In this document: positions 1 to 27,120 of the stretch, one piece after another
Layout of the letters: each line of letters starts with the position of its first letter
How positions within the stretch are numbered: the stretch's first letter is position 1
Position numbers and translations under genes: made by a program
Notes under the pieces: model-generated
The model's database searches: none
The model's input: only the letters and a program-made list of their open reading frames with translations
Told to the model about the DNA's origin: nothing
Source: Candidatus Staskawiczbacteria bacterium
GTDB lineage: Bacteria; Patescibacteriota; Minisyncoccia; Minisyncoccales; Staskawiczbacteraceae
Direction of reading: 5' to 3'
Length of the DNA: 46,832 nucleotides
Assembly: GCA_903928565.1 (NCBI GenBank)
Contig: CAIYRH010000009.1
Location: 1 to 46,832, forward strand

Positions 1-36
1 AAGTAGGTTTTTTGCCTCGAGGCAAAAAACCTACTT
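1..36. repeat. Perfect 36-bp palindrome AAGTAGG-T6-GCCTC|GAGGC-A6-CCTACTT, possibly also a terminator
   Basis: Self-complementary over 1-36 and followed by extra Ts. The central 24 bp recur at 39375-39398. Confidence 0.85.
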
Positions 37-73
37 TTTTTATAATATAGATTTATTGCGGCTTTTTAAAATC

Positions 74-102
74 TTGACGTTATAGTTTAATTGTGATAAA
101 AA
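74..102 (+). promoter_or_regulatory. Putative sigma70 promoter of ORFan islet A
   Basis: TTGACG-17-TAAAAA with TG upstream of the -10. The -10 is imperfect. Confidence 0.4.
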
Positions 103-198
103 CAACTAATCTAGTTCGGCGGAAACACTTTCTGCCTTTCCCAAATTTCCGCCACAATGCGGAACATCCCAACCCCAACCCCAACCAAAATCACTGCC

Positions 199-447
199 AT
201 GAAAAAATTAAAACGCTTCAGGCAATTCAAGGCTCCCCCGCGGAGGTTTAGAGTAATCTGCATCGGCTTTTACAGAGGCTTGCGATATTTAGTCGGCGAC
301 TACAAACATCGCCGAAGTGCAAGAAGGGCTGCCAAAAGAGAGTATAGAAAAACAGATAGCTGTTTCTATATTCACGATGACGCCGGAAATGAAATCGGCA
401 AATTCATACAGCCAGCCCGACACAACAACCAACCGACCCCAAACTGA
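199..447 (+). CDS. Hypothetical small basic protein (82 aa)
   Basis: ORF 157..447. Start moved to ATG 199 because the upstream part is a CCAACC-rich leader. No family recognised. Confidence 0.6.
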   Translation: MKKLKRFRQFKAPPRRFRVICIGFYRGLRYLVGDYKHRRSARRAAKREYRKTDSCFYIHDDAGNEIGKFIQPARHNNQPTPN

Positions 448-458
448 AACCAATCCCC

Positions 459-794
459 ATGACACCACAACTGCTTGCACAAAAGGAAAAAGAACTGCGG
501 GAAAAATATCCCGCCATGTTTTCTCATCCAGAATTGAGAGCGGGCGAAGTCCAAATTGAAGATGCGCTCTATGAACTCAGTGGTCATCGCCGACAAACTT
601 TAAAGAATATTGGCTTCCAAAGTGCCCGTTTCGGTTCAAGCCATGTGGAAAAAGTAGCCATCTTAATCGTCAATAATGACTCCAGCTTAACCCCAACTTC
701 TACAAACCTTAGCTTTTTTCCCATATTTGTCAGCCTTGAAGAATACTTCAAGGTAGTAGAAGCGCACGAACCCCAACCAAAACCAAAGCAATGA
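459..794 (+). CDS. Hypothetical protein (111 aa)
   Basis: ORF starts 11 nt after the previous stop. Its stop overlaps the next ATG (ATGA). Confidence 0.65.
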   Translation: MTPQLLAQKEKELREKYPAMFSHPELRAGEVQIEDALYELSGHRRQTLKNIGFQSARFGSSHVEKVAILIVNNDSSLTPTSTNLSFFPIFVSLEEYFKVVEAHEPQPKPKQ

Positions 795-937
795 ACACAA
801 CAATCCGAATTCTGCTCTTTCTCGCTTTTTTAGCAGTTGGAGCATGGTTGCTTCGGGCGTGGCATAATAGCCAGCCACCCCCGCGCCACCACCAACCCAT
901 CGCCGCACCCACCCAAAGCGAACCGGCGAGGAAGTAA
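791..937 (+). CDS. Small single-pass membrane protein (48 aa), not in the ORF track
   Basis: Hand translation: MNTTIRILLFLAFLAVGAWLLRAWHNSQPPPRHHQPIAAPTQSEPARK*. ATGA overlap with the upstream gene, terminator downstream. Confidence 0.6.
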   Translation: MNTTIRILLFLAFLAVGAWLLRAWHNSQPPPRHHQPIAAPTQSEPARK

Positions 938-959
938 GTTGCAAAGCGCAACATCACAA

Positions 960-988
960 AACCGCATGGTACGCCCAGCGGTTCTTTT
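960..988 (+). terminator. Intrinsic terminator of islet A
   Basis: AACCGC-12 nt loop-GCGGTT followed by CTTTT. Confidence 0.55.
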
Positions 989-1002
989 ATTGAAACGAGT
1001 CT

Positions 1003-1031
1003 TTGACTTAATCTGTTTTTTAGCGTATAAT
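1003..1031 (+). promoter_or_regulatory. sigma70 promoter of typA
   Basis: TTGACT-17-TATAAT, 31 nt before the ATG. Confidence 0.75.
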
Positions 1032-1062
1032 TATTGGTATTATCTAAGACAATAAATAATAA

Positions 1063-2892
1063 ATGAAAAATATTAGAAACATCGCAATTATTGCTCACGT
1101 TGACCACGGAAAAACCACACTGGTGGACGCGCTTTTAAGGCAAAGTAAAACTGAAATGAAGAAAGAAGTTGCCGCCCAAGAAATGATAATGGACAGCAAC
1201 GAACTTGAAAGAGAACGCGGAATTACTATTTTCTCAAAAAATGCTTCCGTAATGTACGGTGAAGTTAAAATAAATATAATTGACACACCCGGTCACGCCG
1301 ATTTTGGCGGTGAAGTTGAAAGAGTTTTAAACATGGCCGATGGTTGTTTACTTTTAATCGACGCCAAGGAAGGCCCAATGCCCCAAACTCGTTTTGTTTT
1401 AAAAAAGGCGTTAGAAATGGGCCACAAAATTATTGTAGTTGTAAATAAAATAGACAAACCCGGCGCTTGCCCAGAATTTGCACTAGAAGCAACTTTTGAA
1501 TTATTTTTAGAATTGGGCGCTGGCGACCACAGTTTAGATTTTCCTGTTTTGTATGCTTCGGGCCGCGATGGCAAAGCCGGCCTACAAGCCGACTTATCAA
1601 AAATGACAGACATTACTCCTGTTTTCGACGCCATTGTAGAACACATTCCCTCACCCATTGCAGACATTTCAAAACCTTTGCAAATGCTGGTAACCTCAAT
1701 TGCTCCAGACGACTTTAAGGGCAGAATTGCCATTGGCAGAATTCACAACGGAGTTTTAAAAGCCGGCCAAGAAGTAGTTCATATAAACAGGCAGGGCGCT
1801 TCAGCAAAATGCAGAATAACTTCACTTATGACATTTGCAGGTTTGGGCAGGCTTGAAGCCGAAGAAATAAAAGCTGGTGACATTGTTGCCCTTGCCGGCA
1901 TTGAAGACGTTACAATTGGTGAAACAATTGCCGACCCCGAAAACCCCACAGCCCTCCCAGTAATTAACATCGACGAGCCAACTGTAAAAATGACATTTAT
2001 GGTTAACGACTCCCCGTTTGCGGGCAAAGAAGGCGAATTTTCTACAACTCGCCAAATTAGGCAACGGCTTTTTAAAGAATTAGAAACCGATGTTTCATTA
2101 AAAGTTGAAGAAAACGATAAAAACCAATGGATTGTTTCTGGCCGTGGTGAATTACATTTGGCAATTTTAATTGAAAGAATGCGCCGTGAAGGTTATGAAT
2201 TTCAAGTTTCCCGCCCACAAGTTATTTTGCGCGAAATAAACGGCAAAACAATGACGCCGTACGAAAAAATATTTATAGAAGTCCCCGACCAATACCAAGG
2301 TGTTGTTATGCAAAAAATGGGCGTTAGAAAAGGTGAATTAAAAGAAATGCGCAACCACAACGGCATTGCCTTTTTAGAATTTATAATTCCAACCAGAGGC
2401 TTGTTTGGCTACAGAAACGAATTTTTAACAGACACCAAGGGCCTTGGAATAATTAATACAATTTTCTTTGAATACATGCCCGACCAAGGCAACTGGAAAG
2501 AACGCGACAATGGCTCACTCGTTGCCACCGAAACCGGCGAAACTCGCCTTTATGGTTTGAAAAATGTTCAAGACCGCGGAGTTTTATTTATTGGGCCGGC
2601 TGTTACAGTTTATGAAGGCCAAGTTGTTGGGCAAAACTCGCGCCCCAACGACATTAGGGTAAATGTTTGCAAAGAAAAACAACTTTCTAATATGCGCTCA
2701 AAGGGTGAAAAAAACCGCGAGCATTTTAATGTTCCCAAATTAATGAACTTAGAAGATTCGTTAGAGTACATTGGTGACGACGAATTAGTTGAGGTTACTC
2801 CAAAAAATATTCGCATCAGAAAAATGCACTTAAAAGAAGTTGATGCCAAGCGTGCCGACCGCGCCGAAGCCGGTGTGAAGTTTGACTACTAA
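1063..2892 (+). CDS. typA: Translational GTPase TypA/BipA
   Basis: NIAIIAHVDHGKTT, RERGITI, DTPGHADFGGEVER, NKID, GRGELHL and the BipA C-terminal NVCKEKQLSNMR. Confidence 0.97.
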   Translation: MKNIRNIAIIAHVDHGKTTLVDALLRQSKTEMKKEVAAQEMIMDSNELERERGITIFSKNASVMYGEVKINIIDTPGHADFGGEVERVLNMADGCLLLIDAKEGPMPQTRFVLKKALEMGHKIIVVVNKIDKPGACPEFALEATFELFLELGAGDHSLDFPVLYASGRDGKAGLQADLSKMTDITPVFDAIVEHIPSPIADISKPLQMLVTSIAPDDFKGRIAIGRIHNGVLKAGQEVVHINRQGASAKCRITSLMTFAGLGRLEAEEIKAGDIVALAGIEDVTIGETIADPENPTALPVINIDEPTVKMTFMVNDSPFAGKEGEFSTTRQIRQRLFKELETDVSLKVEENDKNQWIVSGRGELHLAILIERMRREGYEFQVSRPQVILREINGKTMTPYEKIFIEVPDQYQGVVMQKMGVRKGELKEMRNHNGIAFLEFIIPTRGLFGYRNEFLTDTKGLGIINTIFFEYMPDQGNWKERDNGSLVATETGETRLYGLKNVQDRGVLFIGPAVTVYEGQVVGQNSRPNDIRVNVCKEKQLSNMRSKGEKNREHFNVPKLMNLEDSLEYIGDDELVEVTPKNIRIRKMHLKEVDAKRADRAEAGVKFDY

Positions 2893-2897
2893 AACCT

Positions 2898-2919
2898 AAC
2901 CGCCACATGGCGGTTTTTT
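2898..2919 (+). terminator. Intrinsic terminator of typA
   Basis: AACCGCCA-CA-TGGCGGTT-TTTT. Confidence 0.75.
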
Positions 2920-2929
2920 GTTGCATGGA

Positions 2930-3024
2930 TTGACATTTTCACAAAAAGTCATAAGATATAAATACTCAGCCCTGACAGTTTTTTTACAACATCCAAACCA
3001 ACCAAACCAATCGGAGACACCAAA
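2930..3024 (+). promoter_or_regulatory. Repeated promoter-leader module, copy 1
   Basis: TTGACA-16-TAAGAT, then CTGACAG-T tract-ACAA, a CCAA-repeat leader and GGAG. Near-identical to 3709-3802 and 4441-4529. Confidence 0.8.
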
Positions 3025-3633
3025 ATGAAAAAAAATATCTTTTACGCATTATTTACTATTGCTGGCGTCATCAGCGTCTGCTACATAGCCAAACATGAGA
3101 AGCTGAATATACTGCTTGCTGGAGGAGTTGTCACTCTATTGAGTGCTTGGGGTGGCTTGAAAATTATATCGAACATCCTCAATCCAAAACGGGCGCAACG
3201 CCAAGTGGCGCCCGAAGTGGTCCACAAACCAATAAAGGTATATAATATCAAAATTGACGCGTTCCTCAATGCTATGAGCGAGCTTGCCGCGAACACCGAC
3301 ACCACTAATTTGATGTACCAGCAATGGTATCATAATCGAGTCCACTCAGAATGGTTCAACTTGGCAGCGGCAAAAGAACCCGACTATTTTCTCAAGCTGC
3401 CAGTGGACAGCGATCTTGCAAGTGATTTTGTTGACAGTATGGCGGAAATGTTCGAAGGTTTGATTGTATACACTTGTGCCAATGACAAGGTGCGTCGTGA
3501 ACTGTTGCAAGCAAGCCAAGATTTTCTACGCGCCGTCGAAACAAAGTACTTGGAACTCGGAATTGATATCGACGACATCAACTTCGCTTCGGCACTTTTA
3601 TTCGCCGACGCTATGGCGCTAGGCAGCGCCTAA
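3025..3633 (+). CDS. Membrane-anchored ORFan paralog 1 (202 aa, 2 N-terminal hydrophobic segments)
   Basis: GGAG upstream. Shares FL.AM and F.RAV..K.LELG..ID.I.F motifs with the next two ORFs. Confidence 0.85.
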   Translation: MKKNIFYALFTIAGVISVCYIAKHEKLNILLAGGVVTLLSAWGGLKIISNILNPKRAQRQVAPEVVHKPIKVYNIKIDAFLNAMSELAANTDTTNLMYQQWYHNRVHSEWFNLAAAKEPDYFLKLPVDSDLASDFVDSMAEMFEGLIVYTCANDKVRRELLQASQDFLRAVETKYLELGIDIDDINFASALLFADAMALGSA

Positions 3634-3645
3634 TGCAAACTTTAT

Positions 3646-3683
3646 GTCGCGGCAGATAACATCTGTATTCGCGACTTTTTTTT
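3646..3683 (+). terminator. Terminator of paralog 1 (identical to that of paralog 2)
   Basis: GTCGCG-GCAGAT-AAC-ATCTGT-ATT-CGCGAC-T8. Confidence 0.8.
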
Positions 3684-3708
3684 GCTTGTCTTGAGCGAAG
3701 CCTAAGAA

Positions 3709-3802
3709 TTGACATTTTCACAAAAAATCATAAGATATAACTACTCAGACCTGACAGTTTATTTGACAATCCAAACCAACCAAACCAATCGGAGACACCA
3801 CA
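3709..3802 (+). promoter_or_regulatory. Repeated promoter-leader module, copy 2
   Basis: TTGACA-16-TAAGAT. About 7 differences from copy 1 over about 95 nt. Confidence 0.8.
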
Positions 3803-4381
3803 ATGAAAAACATCATCACCATGATTTGCACGCCACTCGCTGCCGCTATCGCATTTTGCTATCTCATAGACAAACAGCCTATATTGGCATTCTTATCTGT
3901 GGCATTATTTGCCATGGCCGGAACTGCCATCATCATATTCTTTCCTAAGCATCGCAAAACAACTTGCCAAGCGCCGCCCGCGCCAACCAAACCGGTCCGC
4001 AAGCCGGTAAAGGTGTATAAGCTGAAATGTGGCGAATTCCTGGAGGCCATGAAAGAGGTGTTCAACGCACCCGAAACTCCACATTGGCTCTTCCGGACTT
4101 GGTACAAAGACGACATCAAAATAGGTTGGGAAAACTTCAGCAATACCTCGCTGACACAGCTCATCTTGGAGGGTTTCGTCGAAGACATGATTTGCACTTT
4201 CCAAAAAATGGCTTCCGAGTCTAATGGCAGCGAAGACTACCAACGATTACTAGTGCAAAAAGGCCACACCTTTATGCGTGCAGTTCGGGCTAAATGCCTT
4301 GAACTAGAACTTAACGTTGATGGAATTGACTTCGACGCGTCACTTTCATATGCCGACGCCGTAGCGCACGCCAGCGCCTAA
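3803..4381 (+). CDS. Membrane-anchored ORFan paralog 2 (192 aa)
   Basis: KPVKVY, EFLEAM, FMRAVRAKCLELELNVDGIDF and a C-terminal ADAVAHASA match paralog 1. Confidence 0.85.
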   Translation: MKNIITMICTPLAAAIAFCYLIDKQPILAFLSVALFAMAGTAIIIFFPKHRKTTCQAPPAPTKPVRKPVKVYKLKCGEFLEAMKEVFNAPETPHWLFRTWYKDDIKIGWENFSNTSLTQLILEGFVEDMICTFQKMASESNGSEDYQRLLVQKGHTFMRAVRAKCLELELNVDGIDFDASLSYADAVAHASA

Positions 4382-4391
4382 AACCGCCCAT

Positions 4392-4428
4392 GTCGCGGCA
4401 GATAACATCTGTATTCGCGACTTTTTTT
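4392..4428 (+). terminator. Terminator of paralog 2
   Basis: The 32-nt stretch starting at 4390 matches the one starting at 3644, followed by T7. Confidence 0.8.
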
Positions 4429-4440
4429 GCCTTATTATGG

Positions 4441-4529
4441 TTGACAATTTTGCAAAAAGTCATAAGATATAGATACTCAACCTGGACAGCTTTTTTGACA
4501 ATCCAAACCAACCATCGGAGACAACCAAT
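4441..4529 (+). promoter_or_regulatory. Repeated promoter-leader module, copy 3
   Basis: TTGACA-16-TAAGAT, GGACAGC-T6-GACAATCCAAACCAACCATCGGAG. Confidence 0.8.
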
Positions 4530-5117
4530 ATGAAACCAACACACTTGCTCCTACCAGCTACTATAATAGTTGGTATTATCTGTCTATTTTGCCCGCCCTC
4601 TGGATTGGCAATTATCGCTAAAACTCTGACGGTTATTGGCATTACCTGCTTGGTAGTTGACTTCATCCGGTGCAGATGGATTAATCGCCAAGCGCCGCCC
4701 GAACCAACCGAAATTACATACGCTGAATTCCTGCATGCCATGCGCGCGGTGGCAGATGCTTTTCCTAATGCAAAGCTGTTTTTTGGAAAGCTGTACCAAG
4801 CCACTACCAGCTATAAATGGGAAGAACGTCGCAAATGGCACCGCCCTGCATCCCAAGCGAACAGCTTTATCAATAGCATGCACAAATATTTTTGGGATTT
4901 AATAAGCGCTACCCACGACCACACCGCCGTACAAGAAGAAGCGCGTCAATATTTTTGTGCGGTTCGGGCCAAGTGTGTTGAACTGGGTATTAATATCGAT
5001 GGCATCAATTTTAACCCGCCGCTTTTGCCTAGAGAAGCATCCGAAACGCAGGCTGATATGAATCTAACCCTAACGCATATAGCCATAAACAACGACCCGC
5101 CGGGGGACGTATTCTAA
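4530..5117 (+). CDS. Membrane-anchored ORFan paralog 3 (195 aa)
   Basis: RQAPPEP, EFLHAM and YFCAVRAKCVELGINIDGINF. Different C-terminal tail. Confidence 0.85.
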   Translation: MKPTHLLLPATIIVGIICLFCPPSGLAIIAKTLTVIGITCLVVDFIRCRWINRQAPPEPTEITYAEFLHAMRAVADAFPNAKLFFGKLYQATTSYKWEERRKWHRPASQANSFINSMHKYFWDLISATHDHTAVQEEARQYFCAVRAKCVELGINIDGINFNPPLLPREASETQADMNLTLTHIAINNDPPGDVF

Positions 5118-5142
5118 TAAGACGCAAAGTCTCGCGACCTAG

Positions 5143-5172
5143 GCTGACGTATCCAATCGTCGGCTTTTTTTT
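5143..5172 (+). terminator. Terminator of paralog 3
   Basis: GCTGACG-8 nt-CGTCGGC-T8. Confidence 0.7.
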
Positions 5173-5183
5173 GTGCCGACTTG

Positions 5184-5213
5184 CCCCGTTAGAGAGCTTA
5201 TTCTCTCACGGGG
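5184..5213. repeat. Short inverted-repeat element CCCCGTTAGAGA...TCTCTCACGGGG
   Basis: 12-nt arms with one mismatch. Directly abuts TTGCAT at 5214. Confidence 0.6.
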
Positions 5214-5242
5214 TTGCATTTTGGCCATAATCGTGGTATGCT
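5214..5242 (+). promoter_or_regulatory. Putative sigma70 promoter
   Basis: TTGCAT-17-TATGCT. Confidence 0.55.
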
Positions 5243-5269
5243 TAAATACCTTAGTAATTAAGGTCAACT

Positions 5270-5533
5270 ATGATATTAATAAGCAAGGAACAATTTTTAG
5301 AGGAGCATAATAAGTTATCGCCTTCTAATCTGCAGGCCACGCTTGCTTTGCTTAATAGATTTAAAGAGGAAAAAAAGCCTCTTTTAAAAGACGACAGCTG
5401 GTGTTTAGACAAACATCGTGTTCCATTTATTGCTTGGCTGTCTTCATTAGAAAAACCAAAAGAAAAAAACGCCAGACTTTCAACTAAAAAAGAAATTTTC
5501 CGCAACTACCCCGAAACTCACTACGAAGGTTAA
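5270..5533 (+). CDS. Hypothetical protein (87 aa), AT-rich core-like composition
   Basis: ORF with its own promoter and terminator. No function recognised. Confidence 0.75.
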   Translation: MILISKEQFLEEHNKLSPSNLQATLALLNRFKEEKKPLLKDDSWCLDKHRVPFIAWLSSLEKPKEKNARLSTKKEIFRNYPETHYEG

Positions 5534-5537
5534 ATAG

Positions 5538-5568
5538 AAAAATCGTCTTTCAATTAAGGCGATTTTTT
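5538..5568 (+). terminator. Intrinsic terminator
   Basis: AAAAATCGTCTT-TCAATT-AAGGCGATTTTT. Confidence 0.7.
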
Positions 5569-5569
5569 G

Positions 5570-5651
5570 TTGACAAATTATAGAAAAGATATAAACTATA
5601 AATATCTAAACCCGACAGTTTTTTGACAACCCCAACCCCGATACAACCACC
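5570..5651 (+). promoter_or_regulatory. Divergent fourth copy of the promoter-leader module
   Basis: TTGACA-16-TAAACT-ATAAATA, CCCGACAG-T6-GACAA, CA-rich leader. Confidence 0.65.
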
Positions 5652-6464
5652 ATGAAAACGCCAACGAAACAAGAACTAATGGAATCAGCCAGTCAATGGT
5701 TTCTTACAATGCGCAGGGGCCCCTGCTTTATTCTTCATTGGACAGGTGGCTACGGAAGTCCGCTATACTCCCAACTGGAATTCAAGGGTCAAACCCTAGA
5801 CGATTTTCTCCGCTATGTGTGGAAGAAATTTCGTTCACTGCAAAAGGGACTCAACCGCCTGTTTACCAAACTCGACTTCGACGCACCCAACAACCCAACC
5901 AACAAAAGGGTCTTCGCCAAATTCATGGACAGCGCTATCTGGGCAATGTCAGCGGCTATTGATATAAGGCCATACCTGGATCACTACACGCATGACCCTA
6001 CGAATTTCCTATATATTGATTTCGTTTTCCGCCTAGAAGAAATCTATACAAAGTGCTTATCGCTGGTTTATATTTTCGGCGACAAAACGCAGAAACAGCA
6101 GGCCTACATCAACCTGCTCCACGACTTCGTCCAAATGGGTGGAATATCTGCCGACGGAGGACCAGGCCATGGGCTGGACTGTTCAATAACAGCCTACTAC
6201 CGCGCCTTTTTCTCGTCAACGATGCGCCATGCCATGGCCTATCAACGTTTCGGCGCGCTCATCGCTGACTTGGCAAAACTTGTCCAAGAGAAATATCCCA
6301 AAGCCGCCAATAAATTGGCGGGGTCTGTCGATCATCTTTTGAAAAGTGCTACCTGCGGTTTTTCTTCAACGGAGTTTTCCTCTCCGGCAAAGTCCGCCAT
6401 GATTGAGGTGCTTCAACAAGTGGTTACTGACCTACAAAGCTCTACCGCCGAAAAGGCCGCCTGA
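5652..6464 (+). CDS. Hypothetical soluble protein (270 aa), unrelated to the paralog triplet
   Basis: Long ORF directly behind the fourth promoter module. Confidence 0.85.
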   Translation: MKTPTKQELMESASQWFLTMRRGPCFILHWTGGYGSPLYSQLEFKGQTLDDFLRYVWKKFRSLQKGLNRLFTKLDFDAPNNPTNKRVFAKFMDSAIWAMSAAIDIRPYLDHYTHDPTNFLYIDFVFRLEEIYTKCLSLVYIFGDKTQKQQAYINLLHDFVQMGGISADGGPGHGLDCSITAYYRAFFSSTMRHAMAYQRFGALIADLAKLVQEKYPKAANKLAGSVDHLLKSATCGFSSTEFSSPAKSAMIEVLQQVVTDLQSSTAEKAA

Positions 6465-6527
6465 GCCAAAAACTCTTTCGGCTTGCAACAACCCCTGTTC
6501 ATTGATTTTATTGAAGGGAGAATTTCT

Positions 6528-7037
6528 ATGAAAACGAAACAAGCCAGCAAAGTTGCCACGGTCGAAGCGCCGCTTTTGGGAACATTTTATGCAGTGACAA
6601 TGACGTCCATCTACCGGGCGGTAATTAATGAAAAAGGAGCGCCTTACGTTGAAAAAATTGCCATTCGTGCAGGGCAAAACAGTGCAGTTGCCGTTGGAGA
6701 GAGATTTTCAAATGGAACAATGCTCTCGGTGGGTCAGCAATTGATTCTCTTTGTGCCAGAAGGGCATGGTTTTATGTCGCCCATGACATCGGTTGAACGC
6801 GAAATCGCCAATGTTAACACCCAATGGTGGGGTGGCGGAACTTCGGGAATAGTTGCCCTTTTCCTATTCGAAAATGACGCAGTCGTCTGTGGCAGGGCGG
6901 ATAACCTCACTTCTGGCGATAAACGGTGGCATCAAAACACCGTTGAAGTTCTCCGCGCCATCGGTGAAAATCACCCCTTTTGCTCTGTGACAAAGCATCC
7001 AGAAATGGAACTAGTCCCAGTGCGGGAATGGCTTTAA
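6528..7037 (+). CDS. Hypothetical protein (169 aa)
   Basis: ORF 6483..7037. ATG 6528 is preceded by GAAGGGAG. Confidence 0.8.
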   Translation: MKTKQASKVATVEAPLLGTFYAVTMTSIYRAVINEKGAPYVEKIAIRAGQNSAVAVGERFSNGTMLSVGQQLILFVPEGHGFMSPMTSVEREIANVNTQWWGGGTSGIVALFLFENDAVVCGRADNLTSGDKRWHQNTVEVLRAIGENHPFCSVTKHPEMELVPVREWL

Positions 7038-7052
7038 TAGCCCTTAGTTATA

Positions 7053-7086
7053 ACCCCCTATTAGGAAACGAACGGGGTCTTTTTTT
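7053..7086 (+). terminator. Putative terminator of islet C
   Basis: ACCCC-16 nt-GGGGT-C-T7. Short stem, long loop. Confidence 0.45.
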
Positions 7087-7128
7087 ACATTTTTATGCTA
7101 TAATGAATAATAAAATTAACCAATAAAT

Positions 7129-7521
7129 ATGAAAAGTTTATACAAAAATTTGGCAGTAGTTTGTTGGGTTATGGCAATTTTGCCAATAATCGCTTATTTT
7201 ATTACAAACAGCAACCACGATTTAAATTTAAATACAATGCTATTAGCCTTAATTCCCGCAATTTTGCTAATATTGGTGGGGCTTATATTTAATTCTTACT
7301 CAAAGAAAGTTGCTACCAGTAAAATGGTTACCATTGCATCAATTCTCGTTACGCTATCAATAGTTTCCGGCCTTTTGGGCTCAATAATTGAATATTCTTT
7401 GTATGGCGAGGGCAATGCAATTTTGGGCGGGATACTTGTACTTCTTTTTTCTCTCCCCCTACTCTGCATAGGGTTTATAATCGCCGTAATAGGTTTTTTA
7501 TTAACAATAAATAAAGCATAG
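7129..7521 (+). CDS. Integral membrane protein (130 aa, about 4 TM)
   Basis: Four hydrophobic segments. Stop is 1 nt before uppP. Confidence 0.75.
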   Translation: MKSLYKNLAVVCWVMAILPIIAYFITNSNHDLNLNTMLLALIPAILLILVGLIFNSYSKKVATSKMVTIASILVTLSIVSGLLGSIIEYSLYGEGNAILGGILVLLFSLPLLCIGFIIAVIGFLLTINKA

Positions 7522-21637: not shown

Positions 21638-21658
21638 TCCTTCGACTACCGCTCAGGA
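21638..21658. repeat. TCCTTCGACTACCGCTCAGGA repeat (family also at 24251 and 27745)
   Basis: Matches the CCCTTCGAC.(.)GCTCAGGG copies and abuts the groES -35. Confidence 0.75.
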
Positions 21659-25125: not shown

Positions 25126-27120
25126 TTATTTTTTCAACAACACCTGCACTTGCGCCATTATTTGCGCCAACGCAGCAGAAATTGATGCTAAATTGCTTGG
25201 TTCAACATTTGCACTGGTCGTCGATGTTTTCGGGGCCGAGCAAGAAGCAACTTTCCCACTACGCCACATTATACACGACCACGTCCATGGGCCAGAACCG
25301 GTTACCGCCGTATTTGTTCCGACTGAACAAAGATTTATTGTTGGGGCTGTTGCAACTGCCACGCCGTTAGCCGAGCCACAAACACCATCTGCAATTGATG
25401 ACTCATGCGCGCTGCAATCGGCTGTTGTTCCGCCGTTTGCACCCTTACACGACCACCACCAACCTCCTCCCACACCTGCATAAATAACATGAGACACGGC
25501 ACCAGCTTCGCCAGACAAACAAAGTTCGGTTGTTGGGGCTGTTGTGGTATAAGTTCCATTTGAAAAACCGCAACGGCCATTTATTCCCAAGGTCACAAGA
25601 TTTCCAGTAGCTGTTGAAATTCCGGCTGTTTTAGATGGAACTGTTCCACCGGGCACATTCACGGAAGGCGTTTTGTAATTTTCTAGGCCAGCTGTTTGGC
25701 GCGTTGTTGTGCCGTTAATTGTGTAATCAATTTCGCTAATTTTGAAATAAACAAAACCCGAGCCTCCTCTGTAAGTTGCGCTAACGGTTGCTGTTGCAGT
25801 TGAGCCGTCTGGAATATTGCCAACTGGCGAAGTGCTAACATTTACACTACTTACGGGCAATACTGTGCAACTGCCGTTAACGTTGCAAAACTGCACAATC
25901 ACATTACTTGAATTCAATGCTGAAATTATTCCTCCGTGAGCTGTAATTTTGTAAGTAATTACACCAGTTTCATAGCTAAGAGCTGGGTTTGAAACATTTG
26001 GGGTATAGGTTACATTGGCAGTAAGCATTGTTAAACTTGCTGAAGGCTGAGCTGGCGGAACGCCGGTAATCATAGCCGAACAAGAAGCAGTTGTTCCACC
26101 ATTAGAACCAACACATGTCCACGTTCCTGGGCCCGAGCCCAAAATGGTAACAGGCGTTGAAGTTCCAGCTGCGCAAAGGTTTGCGTCGGGTGGAAGCACC
26201 GTGTAAGTCATTCCATTTGCTGTACCGCAAGCACCATTTACTAAAGCAACTCCACCGGGCACATTCACGGAAGGCGTTTTGTAATTTTCTAAGCCGGTAG
26301 TTTGACGAGTTGTTGTACCACCAATTGTATAGTCAATTTCACTAATTTTAAAATAAACAAATCCCGAGCCTCCTCTGTAAGTTGCGCTAACTGTTACTGT
26401 TGCGGTTGAGCCGTCATAAATGCTTCCTGTTGGCGAAGTGCTAACATTTACATTGCTTGCGGGCAAAACTGTGCAAGTGCCGTTAACATTGCAAAATTGC
26501 ACAACAACGTTATTGGAATTCAACGGTGAAATTATTCCTCCGTGAGCTGTAATTTTGTAAGTAATTATACCGGTTTCATAGCTAAGTGCTGGGTTTGAAA
26601 CATTGGGAGTATAGGCAACGTTACTAAAAACATATGCAAGTGTTGCATAACCTTGGTTTTGCGCAACCATTGTAAAATTATTATCGCTTATGTCTTGAAA
26701 TAAAACTCCCTTAACTGTTGCATTTACATTAAACCTGTAATTATTGCCCACAACAGCACCGTTGGGTGCAAAAGCCATAGTTTGTATAGTGGCATTGGTT
26801 ACAACGCCATTTTGAGAAGCCATATAACCACCTCCTGTTGTGCTCAAGTCAACTTCGTATGGAGTGCCCACTGGTAAAGTGGTTGTAAAAGAGACTGTAA
26901 TTGGTTGCCCAATGGCAAATGTTTCTCCACCGTTTGGCGAAACAATAGTAATAGTTGGCATACCTTGGGCATTCTGAAGAGCATTTAATTGAGCCGCCAA
27001 AGAGGCTATTAGGGCCTGCAAATCTGATAGTTGGTCAGCATTTGTTATGGCCGGCATAGCCACGGAAAACAAAATTGCTGTTGCCAAAACAGCTACCACT
27101 ACGAGAGATTTAATTTTCAT
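25126..27120 (-). CDS. Secreted multidomain surface protein (664 aa)
   Basis: Signal peptide, LQALIASLAAQL coiled coil, PTITIVSPNGGE Ig-like start, duplicated 121-aa domain, three NG.CG..NG...LC..G...W.W.C repeats. Confidence 0.88.
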   Translation of the reverse strand: MKIKSLVVVAVLATAILFSVAMPAITNADQLSDLQALIASLAAQLNALQNAQGMPTITIVSPNGGETFAIGQPITVSFTTTLPVGTPYEVDLSTTGGGYMASQNGVVTNATIQTMAFAPNGAVVGNNYRFNVNATVKGVLFQDISDNNFTMVAQNQGYATLAYVFSNVAYTPNVSNPALSYETGIITYKITAHGGIISPLNSNNVVVQFCNVNGTCTVLPASNVNVSTSPTGSIYDGSTATVTVSATYRGGSGFVYFKISEIDYTIGGTTTRQTTGLENYKTPSVNVPGGVALVNGACGTANGMTYTVLPPDANLCAAGTSTPVTILGSGPGTWTCVGSNGGTTASCSAMITGVPPAQPSASLTMLTANVTYTPNVSNPALSYETGVITYKITAHGGIISALNSSNVIVQFCNVNGSCTVLPVSSVNVSTSPVGNIPDGSTATATVSATYRGGSGFVYFKISEIDYTINGTTTRQTAGLENYKTPSVNVPGGTVPSKTAGISTATGNLVTLGINGRCGFSNGTYTTTAPTTELCLSGEAGAVSHVIYAGVGGGWWWSCKGANGGTTADCSAHESSIADGVCGSANGVAVATAPTINLCSVGTNTAVTGSGPWTWSCIMWRSGKVASCSAPKTSTTSANVEPSNLASISAALAQIMAQVQVLLKK
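25646..26615 (-). repeat. Internal 364-bp direct duplication (25646-26009 and 26252-26615)
   Basis: No indels. About 46 mismatches (about 87% identity) by hand count. Confidence 0.9.

Follow-up and report, generated by a model that had tools for sequence, protein, structure and literature searches.

Why the regulatory DNA of neighbouring paralogs should stay nearly constant while the genes that it drives diverge is the question raised by a small tandem array in the genome of a Candidatus Staskawiczbacteria bacterium (Patescibacteriota; GenBank assembly GCA_903928565.1). The array occupies positions 2930-5172 of contig CAIYRH010000009.1, of which a stretch of 46,832 nucleotides, here called the window, was analysed. 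It comprises three units in head-to-tail order, each made up of a TTGACA-N16-TAAGAT promoter, a CA-rich leader of ~65 nt, an open reading frame (ORF) of 192-202 aa and an intrinsic terminator. Its location is chromosomal, in the interval from typA to uppP, with typA on the left and a conserved 87-aa gene, orf87, followed by uppP on the right; the genome (G000) measures 718 kb in 18 contigs and is ~95% complete. In the following, the units are abbreviated u1 to u3 and their proteins W1 to W3. As argued below, the locus is probably, though by no means certainly, a set of three monocistronic paralogs in a lineage-specific tandem array whose flanks are constrained and partly homogenised. Such a pattern, combining a paralog array, promoter constraint and gene conversion, is known and amounts to no new cassette system.

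Each unit opens with an exact match to TTGACA-N16-TAAGATATA (at 2930, 3709 and 4441), and the three promoters score 10/12 against the sigma-70 consensus. A weaker copy with two mismatches lies at 5570, and with up to three mismatches allowed the promoter pattern occurs 7 times in the window compared with 2.3 expected occurrences. Between units 1 and 2, promoter and leader together are ~92% identical over 97 nt (core 30/31, leader 58/65), and the terminators of these two units share 39 identical bases, ATGTCGCGGCAGATAACATCTGTATTCGCGAC plus T7, loop positions included. All three terminators fold far better than shuffled sequences (z between -3.0 and -3.8). The proteins, in contrast, are only 26-31% identical to one another, and the homology of the units includes this coding part (W1/W2 E = 1e-24, W2/W3 E = 2e-14, W1/W3 E = 8e-11). 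When units 1 and 2 are aligned over their whole length, identity is ~90% from exactly the -35 hexamer to ~10 nt past the ATG, drops to 35-50% within the gene and rises over the last ~100 nt of coding sequence. A preliminary description of this stretch had reported the three units, the near-identical leaders 1 and 2, a 32-nt stretch common to terminators 1 and 2, proteins of about 30% identity and flanks more conserved than ordinary drift would leave them. These observations hold, the terminator match being slightly longer than claimed, and the contrast that the identity profile brings out, of conserved flanks around diverged coding sequence, is more than simple drift.

The repeated flanks are real. 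In four metagenome runs from lake water, Logan contigs agree with the window at 100% identity. They span the passages from typA to unit 1, from terminator 1 to unit 2, and from terminator 2 through unit 3 to orf87, and all unique inter-unit spacers are crossed in the order reported. A contig of one run (X3) contains an odd joint that leads from 3768 back to 2991 ("goes back 778") inside a 32-nt shared repeat; this run has no coverage at 2884-2990 and 3832-4053, that is, of the competing paths, and the joint is probably a low-coverage de Bruijn assembly path through the repeat. Searches of the whole 718-kb genome with leader, promoter and proteins returned no copy outside this locus.

Within the genus, the family is present in 3 of 26 genomes and on one metagenome contig (L065), with three copies in G000, two in G005 and one each in G003 and L065. 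The genes always lie between typA and orf87, and since typA is followed directly by orf87 in the six other genus members examined, all with 0 copies, the array is an insertion; most members of the genus have nothing at this site. G000, G003 and G005 are mutually closest by typA (94% identity versus at most 88% for the rest), which fits a single gain. A further match in G010 was rejected as spurious, being located in a restriction-modification locus. In G005, a W3-type gene (G005a) is followed after a 43-nt gap by a W2-type gene (G005b), with neither promoter nor terminator between them, and the two form an operon. The order of ORF types therefore differs among relatives, with typA and orf87 constant on both sides. 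W3 and G005a group as sisters (support 100/100) and have a C-terminal tail in common, G003 and L065 form the closest pair on the other side of the tree with proteins that are 43% identical, and the split between W2-type and W3-type genes is older than the species split. Varying copy number and ORF order between constant borders, as the preliminary description had envisaged, are thus found among relatives, but the promoter variants follow their ORFs: the spacer variant of u3 goes with that of G005a and the variant of G003 with that of L065, a linkage that would be broken if ORFs were shuffled freely between constant flanks.

Between the carrier species, synonymous changes are close to saturation, with a dS of 0.8-1.1 for typA (third positions 62-68% identical) and of 0.7-2.0 for orf87 and uppP, the neighbouring genes as a group being put at about 0.7-1.5. 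Orthologous promoter-leaders of the family are 79-89% identical over their full length, and in the comparison of G003 with L065 the promoter and the first half of the leader agree at 63/64 positions next to a typA 3' end that is ~82% identical. Terminator 2 and the terminator of G005b differ at 4 positions, all of them unpaired or in G-U pairs. The promoter core of typA itself is invariant between G000 and G005, although over the full 100 nt upstream, typA and orf87 reach only 59-75% identity. Because promoter cores are conserved across species despite near-saturated synonymous sites, the conservation of the flanks appears to be a signature of purifying selection on working signals, one that is not unique to this locus.

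A second component of the pattern is the resemblance of units within one genome. Over the leader alone, identity amounts to 0.76-0.89 within G000 versus 0.67 between the orthologous u3 and G005a (0.79 with the promoter core). The ribosome-site state is ATCGGAGACA in all three G000 units and AACGGAAACAAC in both G005 genes, which match each other there at 20/20 positions. The interiors of units 1 and 2 are saturated (dS of at least 1.5). That ribosome-site states are genome-specific and that terminators 1 and 2 are identical both suggest gene conversion or unequal crossing-over, and either short conversion tracts or unequal crossing-over through the flanks would fit best; conversion appears limited to a 5' stretch of ~100 nt and a 3' stretch of ~40-140 nt. 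Of the earlier proposal that recombination or gene conversion through the flanks swaps variant ORFs, the conversion part is thus in agreement with the homogenised leaders and terminators, whereas the swapping part conflicts with the co-descent of promoters and ORFs.

The history that we favour would begin with the ancestor of a small Staskawiczbacteria subclade, which may have gained one promoter-leader-ORF-terminator unit at the typA/orf87 junction. Duplication of whole units and unequal crossing-over would then have led to one to three copies and to the differing gene orders. The flanks would have been kept as working signals, namely a near-consensus sigma-70-type promoter with a constrained spacer, an unstructured leader with a Shine-Dalgarno (SD) sequence, and a terminator, and a common regulator that binds the conserved spacer and the early leader might keep the units co-regulated. 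The homogenisation seen in the leaders, as well as in the 3' ends and terminators of units 1 and 2, would be the work of short gene-conversion tracts. This history must be taken with caution on several counts. The promoters, start sites and terminators of the units are predictions, no regulator or operator was identified for them, and protein family, fold and context gave no clue to function. The sample is small, comprising four loci, and the signal of concerted evolution consists of a few dozen nucleotides and two diagnostic sites. Furthermore, saturated dS makes dN/dS unreliable and site-specific positive selection may be present, and the near-identity of 64 non-coding nucleotides could stem from recent recombination between lineages, beyond constraint alone.

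W1 is laid out as a transmembrane (TM) hairpin, a Pro-rich linker and a helical C-terminal domain. By hydropathy, all members have two hydrophobic helices, with Lys/Arg at the N-terminus and just after helix 2, and according to the positive-inside rule both ends are probably cytoplasmic (N-in/C-in), which would leave the variable domain unexposed. No lipobox follows the first hydrophobic segment; a second TM helix stands there instead. The AlphaFold2 model of W2 has TM helices at residues 2-21 and 26-46, a disordered stretch at 47-66 and a helical domain at 76-167, and the C-terminal domain modelled alone from a 14-sequence alignment reached a predicted local distance difference test (pLDDT) score of 85.8 and a predicted template modelling (pTM) score of 0.81. 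The cytoplasmic helical domain thus predicted is ~120 aa long and carries a GHxF(L/M)-like motif. The motif F.RAV..K.LELG..ID.I.F, singled out in the preliminary description, is indeed present in the alignments of W1-W3, and a C-terminal tail ADAxAxxSA is carried by W1 and W2 alone in the family alignment. A profile search against 1.84 billion representatives yielded 39 clusters at E<1e-3, most of them soluble proteins of 110-160 aa that correspond to the C-terminal domain only and have a near-invariant GHxFL; the helical domain thus also occurs on its own, as a small protein, in other bacteria. The loci of six soluble relatives showed no neighbours in common; some soluble relatives have stretches of small unknown ORFs around them or an integrase next to them. 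For the W proteins, the best matches in Pfam and PHROGs had only E>0.05, searches of NCBIfam and PADLOC returned no match and no known defence family, and the best E-value of a sequence profile search against the PDB was 0.48. Foldseek comparisons, made for the full-length model against the PDB and for the domain model against the PDB and BFVD, ended at generic helical bundles (best E 0.65-0.86). Tentatively, and with low confidence, the W proteins might be membrane-tethered cytoplasmic binding modules for fast-changing partners.

The divergence of these proteins could also be ascribed mainly to diversifying selection on host- or phage-facing factors, with flanks that are ordinary conserved regulatory DNA, a reading that we consider unlikely without finding it negligible. 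The ortholog dN of the W family is 0.45-0.66, compared with 0.05 for typA, 0.10-0.20 for orf87 and 0.14-0.18 for uppP, and is therefore 3-10 times that of neighbouring genes at equal species divergence. In addition, the family is a patchy accessory one (6/301 genomes of the order), and the small unknown ORFs and the integrase found next to some soluble relatives would suit such a role. However, dN/dS (NG86) is 0.2-0.5 and never above 1, values that are unreliable given that dS is saturated and several pairs returned -1; the W proteins evolve 3-10 times faster than their neighbours and are still under some constraint. Moreover, by prediction the variable domain lies on the cytoplasmic side, away from a host cell, the proteins do not match known defence families, and diversifying selection alone leaves the genome-specific leader states and the identical terminators 1 and 2 unexplained. 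Strong diversifying selection and an exposure to host or phage, both put forward in the preliminary description, are thus not borne out.

Quite improbable, in our estimate, is an exchange of cassettes without an integrase, in which the flanks would be homology handles, ORFs would be swapped by homologous recombination and the array would serve as an allele store. Such an exchange would be in line with the variation of copy number and ORF-type order between species within constant outer flanks, with the near-identical flanks of units 1 and 2 around a saturated interior, with the 63/64 promoter block of G003 and L065 ahead of proteins that are only 43% identical, and with the diverged promoter and leader ahead of an unrelated orphan ORF. 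Yet promoter and ORF subtypes co-descend in the four loci (u3 with G005a, G003 with L065), the two G005 genes have no promoter or terminator between them, and the genome holds no extra leader copies or spare cassettes. Nor was an alternative arrangement seen in the four metagenome runs, the X3 joint lying in the 32-nt repeat without coverage of competing paths. The integrase-free cassette array of the preliminary description is therefore left without support by the co-descent, the G005 operon and the metagenome contigs, and neither variants of ORF order or copy number in the contigs of the four runs nor further leaders in the 718 kb were found to go with it. A diversity-generating retroelement target was likewise rejected, as no near-identical coding repeats occur among or near the ORFs and no reverse transcriptase-like ORF lies within 1-9 kb.

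Lineage-specific small ORFs make the typA/orf87 junction a hotspot. In L065, the same promoter stands ahead of the single family gene and of two unrelated ORFs of 112 and 91 aa that come after it, and in G002 an unrelated 139-aa ORF is found at the junction. In the window, the weak promoter copy at 5570 and its leader start a G000-specific insert of ~2 kb between orf87 and uppP (5570-7037 noted). No homolog of its 270-aa orphan ORF was found in 79 genomes of the family, and BLASTP detected no relatedness among this ORF, the extra ORFs of L065 and the 139-aa ORF of G002. This fourth unit looks like promoter reuse ahead of a non-homologous gene. It would be a captured cassette if the promoter-leader (~100 nt) and the terminator acted as recombination handles for recombinase-free capture, duplication and exchange of ORFs at a typA/orf87/uppP hotspot, which we hold to be very improbable. 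Pfam scans of the neighbouring ORFs (typA, orf87, uppP and the orphans) revealed no integrase or recombinase domain beside the array. The junction corresponds to positions 2893-5269 of the window, 941-1360 of L026 and 1045-1685 of L065.

An artefact of assembly or binning, with collapsed or chimeric contigs joined via short repeats, is scarcely credible. In its favour, Logan contigs end at the repeats that the leaders and the terminators have in common, and one has the odd joint described above, but the contigs of the four runs cross all unique spacers in the reported order at 100% identity, and syntenic loci occur in two independently assembled metagenome-assembled genomes and on one metagenome contig.

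The leaders of the three units follow a common plan, in which GACAG, a T-run, (G)ACAA and CCAACC repeats precede ATCGGAGACA. They are less structured than shuffled sequences (z = +0.6 to +1.2, with +1.2 for the unit 1 leader), and Rfam has no match anywhere in 2930-5172, by which a riboswitch or other structured cis-regulatory leader is ruled out. A promoter that doubles as a Xer/dif-like site was dropped on the by-eye impression that there is no resemblance. Because CA-rich (CCAACC-type) tracts abut ATGAAA at ~10 other genes of the genome, several of them for small membrane proteins, the CA-rich part of the leader is probably a general translation signal, which may serve initiation in one class of genes in this organism, and the flank is specific to the locus only as the combination of promoter, TTGACAA box and CCAACC. 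Sites with a CA-rich leader include C2:15506, C5:10909, C5:589, C5:375, C7:51681, C15:641 and C18:90855 as well as positions 199 and 791 of the window.

Concerted evolution through gene conversion or unequal crossing-over is known from tandem multigene families such as the vlp/vsp lipoprotein arrays of Mycoplasma, whose 5' regions are conserved. The present locus resembles them in its head-to-tail paralogs, in the change of copy number among close relatives and in flanks whose similarity is greater within a genome than between orthologs. Unlike vlp/vsp, it has no phase-variation device such as a promoter-spacer homopolymer or an invertase site, and no repetitive surface domain forms its variable part. 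Integron cassettes, which are normally promoterless, offer a looser parallel: both form serial short units with unrelated or diverged ORFs and an imperfect 3' hairpin, whereas the array has no integrase, its 3' hairpins are T-run terminators and not attC sites, and each unit has its own promoter.

In the erp genes of Borrelia burgdorferi (ospE/F-related, with the "upstream homology box"), conserved promoter, operator and leader DNA precedes very diverse protein bodies; recombination is held to have joined one promoter and leader with many coding sequences, and the conserved operators result in co-expression (PMC10016077). The paralogs described here share the conserved promoter-leader and the diverse proteins, and this resemblance is one of pattern only. 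The erp genes reside on cp32 prophage plasmids with one locus per replicon, whereas the array is chromosomal and head-to-tail. Their products are surface lipoproteins with a conserved signal peptide, in contrast to a TM hairpin with a predicted cytoplasmic domain and no lipobox. For erp the regulators BpaB, BpuR and EbfC are known and none is known here, where the organism is a lake Patescibacterium, free-living or episymbiotic. Promoter reuse by "putative mobile promoters" places highly similar promoters ahead of different genes of one prokaryotic genome (PMC3575422). The present locus is similar in having the same promoter and leader ahead of three diverged paralogs and, in diverged form, ahead of the unrelated orphan ORF at 5652; in contrast, most copies here would come from whole-unit duplication, only unit 4 is reuse-like, and no transposable carrier is evident.

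The locus thus provides a clean and small case, in a Patescibacteria genome of ~0.7 Mb, of regulatory DNA that is far more constant than the genes it drives, and it is an instance of new genes building up at a single chromosomal junction. It also brings to light an unannotated family of helical domains, either free-standing or fused to a membrane hairpin, whose fold is predicted with confidence and for which relatives are not known. Should a regulator indeed bind the invariant spacer and the leader, the locus would offer a rare means of studying how transcription is controlled in uncultured Patescibacteria. The coordinates of all features are collected in Table 1.

Table 1. Features of the array and its surroundings, in window coordinates.
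Feature	Position	Strand	Basis or remark
typA intrinsic terminator, just upstream of unit 1	2898..2921	+	hairpin AACCGCCACATGGCGGTT then T-run
Unit 1 promoter core (-35 TTGACA, 16-nt spacer, -10 TAAGAT, ATA)	2930..2960	+	exact pattern match; 30/31 vs unit 2
Unit 1 leader (GACAG, T-run, ACAA, CCAACC repeats, SD GGAG at 3013-3016)	2961..3024	+	read from sequence
W1 ORF	3025..3633	+	202 aa; ORF listing, family alignment, hydropathy
Terminator 1, two-level hairpin then T8	3644..3690	+	-18.6 kcal/mol, z = -3.7
Degenerate spacer element like a repetitive extragenic palindrome (REP), directly 5' of unit 2 -35 hexamer	3688..3706	+	related copies elsewhere
Unit 2 promoter core	3709..3739	+	exact pattern match
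Unit 2 leader	3740..3802	+	58/65 vs unit 1 leader; unstructured RNA
W2 ORF	3803..4381	+	192 aa; ORF listing, AlphaFold2
Terminator 2	4390..4428	+	identical to terminator 1
Unit 3 promoter core	4441..4471	+	31/31 vs promoter of orthologous G005a gene
Unit 3 leader	4472..4529	+	leader alignment
W3 ORF	4530..5117	+	195 aa; ORF listing and alignment; C-terminal tail common only to G005a
Terminator 3, different hairpin akin to G003 terminator	5141..5174	+	fold and sequence comparison
orf87, right-hand border gene of insertion site	5270..5533	+	in 24/26 genomes of the genus; immediately after typA in most of these
Fourth, diverged promoter and leader	5570..5651	+	20-22/31 promoter-core positions vs units 1-3; leader 0.66-0.73
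Orphan ORF behind fourth promoter	5652..6464	+	270 aa; unrelated to W1-W3 (hhalign probability 0.5%)
Second ORF of G000-specific insert	6528-7037		169 aa

The REP-like element, GTCCTGAGCG..AGTCGAAGGAT, is also found in the equivalent position 5' of the G005 promoter (L020, about 7181-7203), and a further copy is intergenic at 21638-21658 of the window on the minus strand. Upstream of typA, a small basic protein of ~80 aa is encoded at 199-447 of the window and at 9983-10225 of L021 (minus strand); it is 43% identical between G000 and G003, has a CA-rich leader in G000, and found no family match. Just 3' of uppP, the sister species G005 encodes a 662-aa protein (L020, 10072-12060) that consists nearly throughout of ~30-aa tandem repeats (KPETLNANAEESAVALGITKQQFVEA...) and is absent from this place in the window. 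The G+C content of the first 7 kb of the window (1-7100), with typA and the region of small ORFs, is 41-44% versus 34-40% in most of the remainder. The largest repeat of the window is a 300-nt direct repeat of 86% identity at 25645-25944 and 26251-26550, the two copies being 606 nt apart.

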